Notes under the pieces: model-generated
Told to the model about the DNA's origin: nothing
Database searches by the model: none
Seen by the model: the letters and a program-made list of their open reading frames with translations, nothing else
Made by a program: the position numbers and the translations under genes
Shown: piece after piece, positions 1,889 through 7,104 of the stretch
How positions within the stretch are numbered: the first letter of the stretch is position 1
Layout of the letters: each line of letters begins with the position of its first letter
Assembly (NCBI GenBank): GCA_964520015.1
Contig: CAZFMA010000027.1
Span: 1 to 32,117 of the forward strand
DNA from: an uncultured Candidatus Saccharibacteria bacterium
GTDB taxonomy: Bacteria; Patescibacteriota; Minisyncoccia; Phycocordibacterales; UBA2100
DNA: 32,117 nt
Reading direction: 5' to 3'

Positions 1889-1966
1889 CCCCGTTAGAAG
1901 CTTCGAGAATTGTGCCTCGGTCGGCATTATTGAAAAACTTTTAATATCTTATGGCTTCTAACGGGG
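1889..1966. mobile_element. Family-1 palindromic-terminus element, copy 2
   Basis: Arms CCCCGTTAGAAGC (1889-1901) and GCTTCTAACGGGG (1954-1966) are exact reverse complements around a 52-nt AT-rich core. TGGA flanks both sides (1885-1888, 1967-1970). Confidence 0.65.
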
Positions 1967-2298
1967 TGGATTTGGCGCAGAAAAGGTGTGTTGCATGCGA
2001 AGGTGGGGCACAGCCCATGACTTCTATGGAGGCAGAAGCAATGTTCAGCCATGTGAAAGACTGGATACTTTCTCCAGATAGCAAAAACATCTCCAAGCAG
2101 TTCAAATTCAAAAATTTTAAAGATGCAATGATGTTCGCAAATAAGATAGGAGACATTGCAGAATCGGAAGGACATCATCCTGACCTCTTGATCGGATGGG
2201 GAAGAGTCGGCGTAGAGCTTTCGACCCACGCCATCAAGGGCCTTTCCGAAAACGATTTCATTATCGCGGCAAAGATTGACTTGATTGAAAAAGGATAG
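1951..2298 (+). CDS. phhB: Pterin-4-alpha-carbinolamine dehydratase (PCD/DCoH)
   Basis: 115-aa ORF with the ESEGHHPDL motif and a typical PCD length. The start is ambiguous: ATG 1951 lies inside the element, and GTG 1966 is formed at the element end. Confidence 0.85.
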   Translation: MASNGVDLAQKRCVACEGGAQPMTSMEAEAMFSHVKDWILSPDSKNISKQFKFKNFKDAMMFANKIGDIAESEGHHPDLLIGWGRVGVELSTHAIKGLSENDFIIAAKIDLIEKG

Positions 2299-2431
2299 TA
2301 TAGTCTCGTTCCTTGTTCTTTGAGAAAAAAGTATTGCCGCAGCGCAAAGGAGCTTGAGATCAGGCTCTTTCCCGCTGTGGCAAACTCCGGATGAGCCGGA
2401 GAGCCAGCAGCGCAACAGAAGGAACTCCCAC

Positions 2432-3088
2432 ATGAGTGGCACTCCCTTCTCGACCGGGCAGCTCGGCAAGCTGCAGAACATCGTCAATATCGGCATCGCC
2501 ACGGCGCTGCCGAAGGTGGCGAAGCGTTTCGAGCCCAAGAGCACCCTCAAGGCGCTCGAGGGCAAGGGTGAAGTGTTTGCCGGCCGTATCGAGGGCGCTC
2601 TCGAGAAGGCCATCACGAGCATGCTCGTGTTGCGCCGCATCGGCACGGCGACCGTCGTACTCGACGGGCCGCACGACCCCGACTCCTACCACCGGACCCG
2701 CGAGGGCCTCTGGGTCTACGGCGACTATCGGAGCCGCATCGTCGCCGAGGCGAAGCCGACTCCGGCAGGTACGACCTTCAAGGTCGACATCGCCGAGATC
2801 GGGCAGGAGGGCGGCGCGACGGACGAGGAGATCGAGGACGCGTTGCCCAAGAACCACCTCTTCGGTGAGTCGCAGGTCTGCGCCGTCATCGCGGGCCTCA
2901 TCGCCAAGCAGCCGCGCGGCGAGGAAGGCGACCTCGACAATCGGGGCTATGCCAATCTCTTCTACACGTCTTCCTGCGTCGTCAACGTCGACTGGGGCGC
3001 CGTCCGCCGGGAGTGGAACGTCATCACGTGGAATCGCGACGACAGCAGGTGGGGCGCTGGCGTTCGCGTCCTGTCTCCCGCCAACTGA
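2432..3088 (+). CDS. DGR target (variable) protein with C-terminal VR
   Basis: The ORF ends in the VR. I prefer ATG 2432, which is preceded by AGAAGGAA, over the TTG at 2354 in the ORF track. About 65 percent GC, so spurious ORFs fill the other frames. No signal peptide or TM segment is visible. Confidence 0.8.
   Translation: MSGTPFSTGQLGKLQNIVNIGIATALPKVAKRFEPKSTLKALEGKGEVFAGRIEGALEKAITSMLVLRRIGTATVVLDGPHDPDSYHRTREGLWVYGDYRSRIVAEAKPTPAGTTFKVDIAEIGQEGGATDEEIEDALPKNHLFGESQVCAVIAGLIAKQPRGEEGDLDNRGYANLFYTSSCVVNVDWGAVRREWNVITWNRDDSRWGAGVRVLSPAN
2972..3083 (+). repeat. DGR variable repeat (VR)
   Basis: 112 nt align without gaps to 3416-3527. There are 15 differences, all at TR adenines. The VR covers the last 37 codons of the target gene. 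Confidence 0.92.
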
Positions 3089-3103
3089 CCCCTCGCTCAC
3101 TTT

Positions 3104-3122
3104 GTCCCGCCGGAGGCGGGAC
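3104..3122 (+). promoter_or_regulatory. GC-rich hairpin 20 nt downstream of VR (candidate DGR target-recognition hairpin)
   Basis: GTCCCGCC-GGA-GGCGGGAC: an 8-bp GC stem with a 3-nt loop. DGR systems are known to use a hairpin/cruciform 3' of the VR. Confidence 0.55.
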
Positions 3123-3174
3123 GGAATCTTCGGTCCCTTTGACACTGTGTCACTTGGGCCGAGGATTCTTTTTT

Positions 3175-3183
3175 TGATACAAT
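3175..3183 (+). promoter_or_regulatory. Extended -10 promoter element TGATACAAT, candidate promoter for the TR RNA
   Basis: Matches TGnTAnAAT. It follows the T-run after the target gene and lies about 230 nt upstream of the TR. Confidence 0.4.
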
Positions 3184-3415
3184 AGAGAAGAAATTTCCGG
3201 CACTGCGGCGGTTACGGCTTCCGCGTGGAGATTTTGGAACGAAGCGTGCCGGAATTCTTTTGGCTACGGCTTGAAGGCGCGCGCGTGCTTCGCTTTCAAC
3301 AAAAAACATTGGTCAGTTGGTATCCGCAATCGGTGGGCTTCGAGACCCCACGTCAGGTTCACTCCGGAGAGTATTCGACGGAGGGTGGCACGGATGGCTG
3401 CGGATACGAGAGGGC

Positions 3416-3527
3416 TCCTGCGTCGTCAACGTCAACTGGAACGCCGACAACCGGAAGTGGAACGTCAACACGTGGAATCGCGACGACAACAGGTGGAACG
3501 CTGGCAATCGCGTCCTGTCTCCCGAAA
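3416..3527 (+). repeat. DGR template repeat (TR)
   Basis: Invariant copy of the VR. It holds 30 adenines, many in AAC/AAT codons, and 15 of them are substituted in the VR. All 82 non-adenine positions are identical. Confidence 0.92.
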
Positions 3528-3538
3528 CTCCCAAGTTT

Positions 3539-3561
3539 CTCCCGCACTTACCGTGCGGGAG
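3539..3561. terminator. Hairpin after TR (CTCCCGCAC-TTACC-GTGCGGGAG) followed by TTTTCGTTT
   Basis: 9-bp stem with a T-rich tail on the plus strand. It overlaps the 3' end of the antisense Avd ORF. Confidence 0.45.
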
Positions 3562-3895
3562 TTTTCGTTTCGAGGCCTTTCTTCCAGCCACCTATCATGC
3601 GACCGAGCTCGTCGAGCCTTTCCGATAGAAGGGTGTACTTCTTAGTATCGATCGCGCAAAGCTCCCAAGCAATACGGAGTAGAAACTTCAACAAGTCAGT
3701 TTTCTTGAGCGCGGCGGTTATCGTAGGCAATTTTTCGTGCCTGCTCTGATAACTCGCGATGAAAAGGTATTCGAGTATAAGGATGAACGTCATGTCTATC
3801 TTATCGCCAAGCGTATATCGCGAGCTTTTGGGGAAGTCGTTCCGGAAGCCGTGCCAGAGTTTGTATACTGTCACTGTATGTTCGATAACAGGCAA
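3548..3895 (-). CDS. avd: Avd-like accessory variability determinant (four-helix-bundle / 23S rRNA IVS protein family)
   Basis: 115-aa basic ORF with [24 protein letters not shown] near the N-terminus and a GGWKKGL tail, both typical of this family. It uses a TTG start and lies between the TR and the RT, but on the opposite strand. Confidence 0.75.
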
Positions 3896-3924
3896 AATGC
3901 GTCGGTGGGGGGCATTCTAGGATT

Positions 3925-4920
3925 TTGTTCGCTCATACCTACGACGATATCATCTCCGTCGAGAATGTGCTCGGTGCGTGGAAGGAGTTCGTGAGAGGAA
4001 AGCGGAAGAAGAAAGACGTACAGAAATTCCAATACCGATTGATGGATAGCATTCTTGCACTCCATCGGGACTTGCAAGAAGGATCATACTGCCACGGCGG
4101 CTACCAGGCGTTTAAGATCAGCGATCCAAAGCCGCGCGACATCCACAAAGCAACAGTACGCGATCGCCTCGTTCACCACGCGTTGTACCGACAACTCTAC
4201 CCGTTCTTCGACCGTACCTTTATTTCCGATTCGTATTCTTGCAGGAAAGGTAAAGGTACACACCGCGCGATGAATCGCTTTCGCTCATTTGCGTACAAAG
4301 TCTCTAAGAACCACACGCGTACGTGCTGGGTCCTCAAGTGCGATATTCGCAAGTTCTTCGCCTCGATTGATCAGTCCATCCTACTGGGAATTATTGAACG
4401 ATATATTCCCGATCAAGATGTACGTTGGCTCATCGGACAAGTCGTCACTAGCTTCTCAACTACGGCAAGGCCGGGCCTTGCCGCATCGCGTGTTGGACTG
4501 CCACTCGGCAATCTCACAAGCCAACTTCTCGTCAACATCTACATGAACGAGTTCGATCAATTCGTAAAGCACAAACTGAAAGCGAAATACTATGTCCGTT
4601 ACGCCGACGATTTCGTGATTCTCTCGCATGACAGGAAACGACTCACATCAATAGGGCGATATATCGCTATGTTCTTACGGGAGCGGCTGAAGCTCGAATT
4701 GCACCCCAATAAACTATTCCTTAAGACACTTGCATCCGGCGTTGATTTTCTCGGCTGGGTTCATTTTCCCGATCATCGAGTCCTGCGGACGGCTACAAAA
4801 CGAAGAATGCTTAAACGCATGGAAGATTACGACAATGAAAATGTCATCAACTCATATCTCGGCATGCTCTCACACGGGAATGCGCGCAGACTTGTCGGGA
4901 AGATAAACAAAATCACGTGA
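3925..4920 (+). CDS. DGR-type reverse transcriptase
   Basis: 331-aa ORF with the RT motif 5 YVRYADDFVIL and the DGR-typical motif 4 LPLGNLTSQLL. There is no maturase or endonuclease extension. TTG start. Confidence 0.9.
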   Translation: MFAHTYDDIISVENVLGAWKEFVRGKRKKKDVQKFQYRLMDSILALHRDLQEGSYCHGGYQAFKISDPKPRDIHKATVRDRLVHHALYRQLYPFFDRTFISDSYSCRKGKGTHRAMNRFRSFAYKVSKNHTRTCWVLKCDIRKFFASIDQSILLGIIERYIPDQDVRWLIGQVVTSFSTTARPGLAASRVGLPLGNLTSQLLVNIYMNEFDQFVKHKLKAKYYVRYADDFVILSHDRKRLTSIGRYIAMFLRERLKLELHPNKLFLKTLASGVDFLGWVHFPDHRVLRTATKRRMLKRMEDYDNENVINSYLGMLSHGNARRLVGKINKIT

Positions 4921-5049
4921 CCCCGCACTAAACTTTGGCATTGCTCCCTTCGCGCCACACGTTCAGTCGACACCTTTTCTCTTTATTCGAGAAAACGGAG
5001 CGATTTGAGGGAATATATTCGCACAAAAATGCCGAAGTTAGTTCATGGG
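4921..5049. mobile_element. Family-2 inverted-repeat element, copy D (TTGGCAT...ATGCCGA termini)
   Basis: AACTTTGGCAT (4931-4941) pairs with ATGCCGAAGTT (5029-5039) with one G-U position and an 87-nt spacer. CCC/GGG outer ends match the other copies. No flanking direct repeat. Confidence 0.45.
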
Positions 5050-6402: not shown

Positions 6403-7104
6403 ATGGCTGAAACAAGCGTACCACCTTCGTTTATACCCCATGACACGGGAGTCGTTACTCCTGTCTCGCGCAGAAGAAGCGCTGGGTTGAGTGACCTGCT
6501 CCTTCTGTGTGCGATCGTGCTTTTTGTTGCCTCGGCCGCTCTCGCGGGCGGAGTCTTTTTGTACCAACAATTTCTTGCAGCTGAGAGTGCCTCCAAATTA
6601 TCTCAACTTGAGCGTGCAAAAGCCGCCTTCCAGCCCTCTTTAATTCAGGAACTCACCCGCCTGGATGACAGGATGCATGCAGCAGACCGCATTTTGGGAT
6701 CTCACGTTGCGCCCACCGCCTTTTTCTCTGCACTGGAGAAAGCAACCTTAGAGACAATCTCCTTTCAATCGCTTGATTTTCAATCACCCGATCCGCAGCA
6801 CATGACGATCAAGATGGCAGGTATTGCACAAAGTGTAAACTCGATTGCCCTCCAAGCAGATTTGTTTAGCAAGAACGGAGTCATTGCAAGTCCCATTTTC
6901 TCCAGTATTGCTCGCCAATCCGACGGTGTTCATTTCAATCTCTCGGCAGTGCTGAATCCTCTCTCGATTAACTATGGAACACTCGTCACGACCCCCCTCG
7001 AAGGGGCTACACAAGATCAAGTGCTCCCCCTCGAGAACCCTGAGGCACCAGCCAATCTTTCACCATTTGATGCGCCTGCTGGAGCGAAGGCTCCTCAAAA
7101 CTAA
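6403..7104 (+). CDS. PilN-like pilus assembly membrane protein
   Basis: One N-terminal TM helix (LLLLCAIVLFVASAALAGGVFLY) followed by a coiled-coil region. It sits between pilM and the pilO-like gene. Confidence 0.6.
   Translation: MAETSVPPSFIPHDTGVVTPVSRRRSAGLSDLLLLCAIVLFVASAALAGGVFLYQQFLAAESASKLSQLERAKAAFQPSLIQELTRLDDRMHAADRILGSHVAPTAFFSALEKATLETISFQSLDFQSPDPQHMTIKMAGIAQSVNSIALQADLFSKNGVIASPIFSSIARQSDGVHFNLSAVLNPLSINYGTLVTTPLEGATQDQVLPLENPEAPANLSPFDAPAGAKAPQN

Follow-up and report, generated by a model that had tools for sequence, protein, structure and literature searches.

A small DGR target gene of a Patescibacteria genome without a detectable export signal and with GC-rich silent sites

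The window, by which is meant the whole stretch of 32,117 nucleotides that was analysed, contains an intact DGR in which the target gene (2432-3088) and its VR are followed by the TR, by avd on the minus strand and by a reverse transcriptase (RT) gene. Its components are listed below in the coordinates of the window.

2334-2401, plus strand: structured 5' leader of the target gene, with a long hairpin (2334-2383) and a short hairpin (2385-2401)
2432-3088, plus strand: target (variable protein) gene, an open reading frame of 218 aa with no Pfam match
2972-3080, plus strand: VR, a 109-nt repeat 88% identical to the TR, encoding residues 181-217, the last three to four predicted β-strands
3101-3125, plus strand: GC-rich hairpin 13 nt past the target stop codon, with an 11-bp stem and a 3-nt loop
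3416-3524, plus strand: TR, non-coding, the 109-nt partner of the VR, with 27 adenines
3539-3561, plus strand: hairpin with a 9-bp stem, then a U-rich run, just 3' of the TR and overlapping the 3' end of avd
3548-3895, minus strand: avd, 115 aa (Pfam bAvd PF22296, E = 1.7e-13, 51.4 bits for a cut-off of 40)
3925-4920, plus strand: DGR reverse transcriptase, 331 aa (Pfam RVT_1, E = 1.4e-23)

The avd gene is thus on the strand opposite to both the target and the RT genes, and the RT is the only one in the genome. Ordinary chromosomal genes flank the DGR; the upstream neighbours are an arginase-family gene, a phosphoribosyltransferase-like gene and a pterin-4a-carbinolamine dehydratase gene, and further long open reading frames lie downstream. 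Homologs of the RT (E ≤ 1e-30) were found in 96 of the 401 genomes of the phylum, and 20 such loci from other genomes were fetched for comparison. An A-biased VR/TR pair was present in 17 of them, yielding 18 comparison targets. With the layout target - TR - avd (opposite strand) - RT, the locus is very likely an ordinary, currently active Patescibacteria (CPR) DGR.

There are 13 mismatches between the two copies of the 109-nt repeat. In each case the base of the downstream copy is an adenine, which identifies this copy as the TR and the upstream one as the VR. Every one of the 27 TR adenines falls at codon position 1 or 2 of the VR frame. They are distributed over 16 codons (ten AAY, three GAC, one AAG, one ACG and one AGG), from which about 5.8e15 peptides are possible. 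The substitutions found in the VR are from A to G in nine of the 13 cases. The motif W-N-x-x-x-R-K-W, quoted for the VR in the original prediction, is correct; it corresponds to the translation of the TR and has no Pfam match.

VR and TR part ways after ...GTCTCCCG, the putative end of the IMH, and the GC-rich hairpin at 3101-3125 is found downstream. According to the available text of Wu et al. (2018, PMC5758913), an inverted repeat rich in GC is found at this place in DGRs. The hairpin occupies the same place, and its position suggests that it may play the same role. The predicted folding energy of the segment 3086-3135 is -19.9 kcal/mol, with a z-score of -1.25, and 21 of 200 shuffled sequences were as stable.

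Natural variation of the VR was examined in two metagenome runs from two studies (X1 and X2), using assembled contigs rather than raw reads. The X2 contig, which covers 2506-3359, has no difference from the window. A 437-nt contig of X1 (2877-3313) has 15 differences, all located within 2985-3063 and all at positions where the TR has one of its 27 adenines. At two of these 15 sites, the X1 VR has the adenine of the TR itself. The flanks of the VR are identical, and three other contigs of the same run (2513-2848, 3313-3595 and 3625-4300) are also devoid of differences. Since the differences are confined to TR-adenine sites and the flanks are identical, one strain background holds two independent draws from the TR. 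The VR therefore diversifies in populations, on the thin evidence of the assembled contigs of two runs.

From DGR biology, we infer the following course of events, of which the end state is what is observed at the locus. An RNA containing the TR (3416-3524) would be copied by the RT with Avd, random bases being put in opposite the adenines. The resulting cDNA would replace the VR (2972-3080) at the 3' end of the target gene. Up to 16 codons would be rewritten, allowing about 6e15 peptides, on the last β-strands of a compact C-terminal domain. This domain with its rewritten strands is most likely the ligand-binding face of the protein.

Two other RNA structures are predicted in the cassette. 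The leader of the target gene (segment 2325-2440) folds with -49.4 kcal/mol and a z-score of -4.19, a stability reached by none of 200 shuffled sequences. Its hairpins are followed by a purine-rich AGAAGGA resembling a ribosome-binding site, about 8 nt upstream of the ATG. A similar leader, 81% identical over 69 nt, precedes a paralog of the target on contig C10. The possibility that the leader hairpin is a repeated mobile element was considered and rejected: the motif GCTGTGG[CT]AA occurs six times in the genome, and only two of these occurrences, those of the target and of the C10 paralog, lie within such a leader. The segment 3525-3575 folds with -19.5 kcal/mol and a z-score of -4.29, one of 200 shuffled sequences being equal. 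The hairpin and U-rich run that it contains are likely the 3' end, or a structured spacer, of the TR RNA. An Rfam search of 1900-5000 returned no match at E ≤ 1.

The original prediction had singled out the target gene and the TR as a compositional outlier. This is confirmed: the GC content of the target gene is 0.661, as compared to 0.507 for the genome and also 0.507 for the window. The genome assembly amounts to 772 kb in 92 contigs. Among 7159 sliding windows of 657 nt taken over the 92 contigs (mean 0.507, s.d. 0.032), the richest has a GC content of 0.664 and is located at position 2501 of the contig analysed here, inside the target gene. Taken by lines of 60 nt, GC ranges from 0.58 to 0.73 in the target and from 0.57 to 0.63 in the TR (0.596 overall), versus 0.42 to 0.53 in avd and the RT gene. 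The GC-rich block, at approximately 2335-3125, consists of the leader, the coding sequence and the downstream hairpin. The genome-wide comparison proposed with the original prediction leaves the target as the most extreme GC island, not the sole one, because 45 of the 7159 windows, on 11 otherwise ordinary contigs, reach a GC content of 0.60. Seven other GC3-rich reading frames were inspected; one encodes a CMAS-type methyltransferase, and Pfam has no match for the other six. A contaminant contig was rejected as an explanation, as all 92 contigs have a GC content of 0.47-0.53 and the island lies inside a 32-kb contig. The long stop-free frames over the target, correctly attributed at the outset to the GC-rich composition, include spurious reading frames of 261 aa on the minus strand (2360-3145) and 249 aa on the plus strand (2436-3185).

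The GC excess of the target sits at silent sites. The GC contents at the three codon positions (GC1, GC2 and GC3) are 0.63, 0.47 and 0.89 in the target, versus 0.58, 0.42 and 0.54 in 497 long open reading frames of the genome, where the s.d. of GC3 is 0.066. The target ranks first of the 497 for GC3. Its third positions are 0.018 A, 0.546 C, 0.344 G and 0.092 T, and its two-fold purine-ending codons are 30 G-ending versus 2 A-ending. The bias is strand-asymmetric, C being favoured over G and T over A. Ordinary translational selection was rejected as its cause, as the rpoB, rpoC, S2 and GTPase genes of the genome have usual values (GC3 0.53-0.60, A3 0.19-0.24). No member of the L2 or GroEL family was detected in the genome, which is 82% complete.

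One reading of the deviation, raised in the original prediction, is that the target and the TR form a recently acquired cassette, imported from a high-GC donor and not yet adapted to the composition of the host. The preferred codons (GCC, GGC, GTC, CGC, AAG, GAG) indeed resemble those of a high-GC organism. The distribution of the family is also patchy, with members in 13 of the 401 sampled genomes of the phylum, the source genome included, and in none of the seven genomes of the same order that were searched. Moreover, deviating GC content is used as a sign of DGR transfer in the available part of Wu et al. (2018, PMC5758913), and the codon deviation of whole DGR neighbourhoods is likewise taken as a transfer sign in published work on DGR codon usage, as far as the text of that work is available. 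However, the RT and avd genes, which stand beside the TR, have host-like GC3 values (0.58 and 0.61, respectively). The undiversified C10 paralog in the same genome is raised as well (GC3 of 0.67), and a pattern-limited scan detected no homolog outside Patescibacteria.

Comparison with other genomes is also at odds with an import. Homologs that share 37-63% identity with the target retain the excess. Across 13 family loci in 10 genomes, GC3 peaks in the family member at every locus, and its A3 is the lowest at 12 of them. At five further family loci, its GC3 is above the mean of the neighbours in all five and the highest in four. Overall, the GC excess is found in 17 of 18 homologous loci. The neighbouring reading frames used for these comparisons are mechanical, uncurated calls, and two of the 13 loci had just one and three neighbours. 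The excess extends to the 18 comparison targets, none of which is matched by a hidden Markov model of the target family. All 14 small ones (168-247 aa) have a GC3 above the mean of their neighbours; it is the highest of the locus in 10, and 13 have the lowest A3. The mean values of the 18 targets and of their neighbours are, respectively, 0.67 and 0.47 for GC3, 0.12 and 0.24 for A3, 0.36 and 0.22 for C3, 0.21 and 0.29 for T3, and 0.30 and 0.25 for G3. In the four large CPR targets (641-734 aa), GC3 is raised slightly or not at all, and the hallmark is therefore not general to DGR targets.

What was found does not have the features of a horizontally acquired island: the deviation is confined to the target, and relatives and unrelated small targets deviate alike. 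A recently acquired cassette is thus a very improbable explanation, and this part of the original prediction is not supported. Because the excess recurs in homologous loci and in all 14 unrelated small targets, it is regarded as a long-maintained trait of small CPR targets. The preferred reading of the locus as a whole (active DGR, protein family and composition), to which a probability of about 0.8 is given, takes the silent-site bias, with C3 raised and A3 nearly gone over the whole transcript, as a hallmark that small CPR DGR targets in general have kept. No report of silent-site GC or C enrichment with adenine loss in DGR targets was found in the searchable literature, and the available text of Roux et al. 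(2021, PMC8144416) and of Wu et al. (2018, PMC5758913) does not mention it.

The near absence of adenine raises the question of a relation to adenine mutagenesis, of which the bias could be a by-product or against which it could be a safeguard. In the by-product version, the RT would occasionally copy the target mRNA and erode its sense-strand adenines; in the safeguard version, such adenines would be selected against. Adenine is the most depleted third base in the target. This depletion, the lowest A3 of the locus in 12 of 13 family loci, the halved mean A3 of the 18 other targets, the rarity of A-ending two-fold codons and the match of the GC-rich block to the presumed transcript are all in line with this idea. 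Adenine mutagenesis of the transcript predicts the bias only partly, however, because T3 drops too and only C3 climbs: the gain is nearly all in C3 rather than shared by C, G and T, whereas the actual substitutions in the VR are chiefly from A to G. In addition, the bias persists in family members with neither a TR nor an RT within 10 kb, large targets are without it, and no known DGR step copies the gene body. Both versions are therefore considered improbable, and the maintained hallmark is retained as a description of the bias, whatever its cause.

The target protein consists of an N-terminal three-helix part (residues 8-64) and a conserved C-terminal domain (residues ~65-218). With a word-indexed search, 43 homologs were retrieved; their lengths are 156-253 aa, in most cases 214-221 aa, and they share the start of the target (MSGTPF or MGTPF). 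None has a Pfam annotation, and one is named a hypothetical protein of a Patescibacteria group bacterium. An exhaustive HMMER search with a threshold of E ≤ 1e-3 returned 596 cluster representatives; 310 of them remain at 1e-10 and 51 at 1e-30. As most representatives align only over residues ~65-218, the conserved unit is a C-terminal domain of about 150 aa behind variable N-terminal parts. The variable columns of the alignment are those templated by the adenine codons of the TR. In a pattern-limited scan of 185,579 genomes, one per species, with a 13-row alignment as query, five loci were found, all in MAGs labelled Saccharibacteria, Vogelbacteria or Patescibacteria. The family is large and unannotated, was found in Patescibacteria only, and is made of small signal-less proteins with interchangeable N-terminal parts.

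Relatives carry A-biased VR/TR pairs. The mismatches that fall at TR adenines number 18 of 21, 23 of 23, 16 of 16 and 15 of 16 in four genomes (G389, G023, G050 and G312, respectively). A second, remote target on another contig of G389 has 17 of 19 mismatches at TR adenines. Around other family members, neither a TR nor an RT is present within about 10 kb. The C10 paralog, 39% identical to the target, is undiversified and matched by no TR. The only recurring neighbours across the family loci are the RT and avd genes (four loci each) and one further family (three loci), which gives no functional clue.

The original prediction also held that the product lacks a signal peptide, a lipobox and a transmembrane (TM) helix. 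None of these was detected in the target by a hydropathy analysis, which is cruder than SignalP; the best 19-residue Kyte-Doolittle window scores 1.19, for a threshold of 1.6. The in-frame stretch upstream of the start, back to the preceding stop codon, consists of 36 polar codons, ...LRSGSFPLWQTPDEPESQQRNRRNSH. Family-wide, an N-terminal hydrophobic segment occurs in one of 178 sequences and a lipobox in none. From its sequence, the target looks non-exported; the absence of a classical signal is no proof of a cytoplasmic location.

Sequence comparison did not place the VR in the known C-type-lectin or FGE families, as had been foreseen. Pfam has no family for the target, and no Pfam family is common to more than two of 136 relatives. 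Lectin-fold families go by the names FGE-sulfatase, DUF1566 and Lectin_C. Profile searches of PDB sequences gave chance rows only (E ≥ 0.44). The 30 nearest clusters in the ESM Atlas have no Pfam family, and a search of residues 110-218 restricted to named entries scored at most 0.85. When the family was aligned with eight other small CPR targets using hhalign, the probability was 7%. For ten other CPR targets, Pfam had nothing above the cut-off, so that they offer no annotated anchor.

AlphaFold2 (AF2) models were obtained for the whole protein from 44 sequences and for the C-terminal domain from 136 sequences, with pLDDT values of 95.0 and 97.1, respectively. Foldseek comparison of both models with the PDB returned nothing at E ≤ 0.001. 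The best E values were 0.026 and 0.031, for SAS-6 head domains with TM scores ≤ 0.25, and no lectin-fold chain is among the best 50 PDB matches listed for either model. BFVD likewise has nothing at E ≤ 0.001 (best E of 0.14); three viral C-type-lectin-like rows, at ranks 5, 18 and 48, are insignificant with E values of 0.28-1.2.

In the model of the C-terminal domain, DSSP assigns β-strands at 54-62, 114-118, 122-128, 133-139, 145-146 and 151-155, and α-helices at 70-76 and 85-98. In the last ~105 residues, a strand and two helices thus precede four to five strands, the final ones of which carry the VR. The available text of Handa et al. (2016, PMC5006420) gives β1-α1-α2-β2-β3-β4-β4'-β5 as the core of AvpA, Mtd and TvpA. 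The order of elements in the C-terminal domain is that of this DGR C-type-lectin core; the match covers the order alone and not the pairing of strands. The fold check proposed with the original prediction thus gave no clear C-type-lectin prediction and no upstream signal peptide, but an order of secondary structures that matches the C-type-lectin core.

These results could mean that the target is a diversified binder built on a genuinely new, non-lectin fold, which would make it a separate structural class of DGR scaffold. Two very confident models without a significant match in PDB and BFVD, and the lack of a relative in Pfam, among PDB sequences or among named ESM Atlas entries, speak for such a fold. 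The identical order of elements speaks against it, although the comparison with Mtd, TvpA and AvpA was made by description rather than by coordinates. A new fold is considered unlikely. As judged from the models, the C-terminal domain is probably a stripped-down lectin-like scaffold, which is preferred over a new one although no structural match positively supports it; the fold is left unassigned.

The absence of an export signal and the GC-rich codons are therefore both real, and typical of small Patescibacteria DGR targets rather than marks of import. Regarding the proposal of a new class of intracellular diversified binder, the target does look non-exported, but signal-less CPR targets had already been published, as is apparent from the available text of Roux et al. 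(2021, PMC8144416) and Wu et al. (2018, PMC5758913), and a new class is not supported. The nature of such non-exported targets without an assigned fold is an already recognised open question in print. New at this locus are the second VR allele in another metagenome and the undiversified paralog with a common structured leader. A bolder view is that small signal-less Patescibacteria targets are cytoplasmic diversified receptors on a minimal scaffold without counterpart in the PDB, and that the silent bias, kept in unrelated target families and at differing GC contents of the hosts, is the trace of a process tied to the DGR and affecting the entire target transcript. The RT might, for instance, now and then copy the target mRNA, or sense-strand adenines might be selected against because they are mutable. 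Taken jointly, this is a long shot.

RT homologs are present in about a quarter of the Patescibacteria genomes sampled. The locus should be useful for studies of expression and binding, as it offers two natural VR alleles, a confident model, an unannotated family of ~600 clusters and an undiversified paralog. The silent-site enrichment in GC and C with loss of adenine appears to be specific to small CPR targets. If it were linked to the mechanism of the retroelement, it would provide a new mechanistic clue as well as a composition signature for orphan DGR targets.

Among known DGR targets with a lectin fold of the FGE type, Mtd of Bordetella phage BPP-1 is a phage tail-fibre protein and TvpA of Treponema denticola is a lipoprotein. 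They share with the target a C-terminal VR near the stop codon in which variation is directed by adenines, and a GC-rich inverted repeat downstream of the VR, to which the hairpin with a z-score of -1.25 may correspond here. In contrast, the target has no export or anchoring signal, no phage context and no match to FGE-sulfatase or any other Pfam family.

Intracellular DGR targets are described in multicellular bacteria as putative antigen-sensor NTPases, according to the available text of the report (PMC10907252). Like the target, they have no export signal, which suggests the idea of an intracellular diversified receptor. In that text, those are large multi-domain proteins of conflict systems, whereas the target has 218 aa and neither an NTPase or effector domain nor a conserved partner.

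AvpA of Nanoarchaeota, which has a divergent C-type-lectin fold, is likewise a small variable protein with a single domain, from an organism of nano size (PMC5006420, from the available text). The same source describes a fold that could not be predicted from the sequence, the same order of core elements, and a VR on the C-terminal strands, as at the target. No sequence or Foldseek similarity between AvpA and the target was detected, and the domain of the target differs by the absence of long inserts and by extra N-terminal elements together with the three-helix N-terminal part.

The first survey of CPR DGRs is said to be that of Paul et al. in 2017. As far as their text is available, Wu et al. 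(2018, PMC5758913) report that one architecture dominates among 126 CPR DGRs and that hardly any of the targets can be annotated; some of the VRs form clusters of unknown fold (UVR1-6), and 45 are ungrouped. Targets of the Patescibacteria DGR clade are typically without TM or other conserved domain in the corresponding part of Roux et al. (2021, PMC8144416), who leave open whether they are genuinely non-membrane-bound. Compared by these published descriptions, the locus shows no essential difference from the Patescibacteria/CPR DGRs ("DGR clade 2" of Roux et al. and the "CPR set" of Wu et al.): like them, it combines a chromosomal target with TR, avd and RT, and its target is small, devoid of TM helix, signal peptide or recognisable domain, with the VR at the extreme C-terminus.

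A paralog of the target gene was found on a second contig of the same genome:

Contig C10, 6766-7407: undiversified paralog of the target, 214 aa, 39% identity to the target, GC at third codon positions (GC3) 0.67.

In the assembled genome, neither a TR matching this paralog nor a second RT was found. The paralog is a target that has been retired or, alternatively, a member of the family with fixed specificity.

The two genes share a structured leader, whose layout recurs in a family member from another genome:

Window 2334-2401: target leader, from RNA folding and alignment to the paralog leader.
Contig C10, about 6650-6765 (fetched locus L014, 1385-1500): paralog leader, from RNA folding and alignment to the target leader.
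Fetched locus L025, 2115-2260: leader of the family member in another genome, from RNA folding.

The target and paralog leaders are 81% identical across the 69 nt preceding the ATG, and both consist of a long hairpin, the arms of which terminate in TTGCC(R)C(R)GC / GCTGTGG(C/T)AA, followed by a short one. Fold z-scores are -4.2 for the target, -4.1 for the paralog and -7.7 for the L025 leader. Fetched locus L027 has the 3' leader motif only, with no stable fold. No Rfam match to the leader was obtained in window 1900-5000 (E<=1). The leader may control translation or transcription in the target gene family.

In genome G389 of the phylum sample, two target genes of this family share a single TR. 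They lie on different contigs (C12, locus L022; C6, locus L021), and 18/21 and 17/19 of their respective VR/TR mismatches fall at TR adenines. One of the two is a remote second target.

Seven further ORFs of the window's genome have a GC3 of 0.74-0.81 on contigs of ordinary GC:

C15:9056-9697
C37:1578-2198
C6:3258-3977
C44:10971-12104
C77:2236-3189
C84:5848-6795
C40:6064-6867

Signal-peptide-like N-terminal sequences are present in three of them. Pfam identified one as a CMAS-type methyltransferase and gave no match for the other six.

At the window locus, a further structure lies immediately 3' of the TR, overlapping the 3' end of the opposite-strand avd:

Window 3539-3570: strong hairpin and U-rich run, from RNA folding.

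It looks like a terminator, which would stop the TR RNA ahead of the RT gene; TR and RT may therefore not be co-transcribed.

In many Patescibacteria genomes, the match to the RT is split in two (about residues 2-181 and 188-325), with both pieces inside a single longer open frame of 370-433 aa, for example:

G312:C1:61344-62393
G071:C5:107373-108398
G155:C12:19079-20122
G399:C5:39578-40606

This arrangement suggests that an insertion separates the two halves of these RTs.
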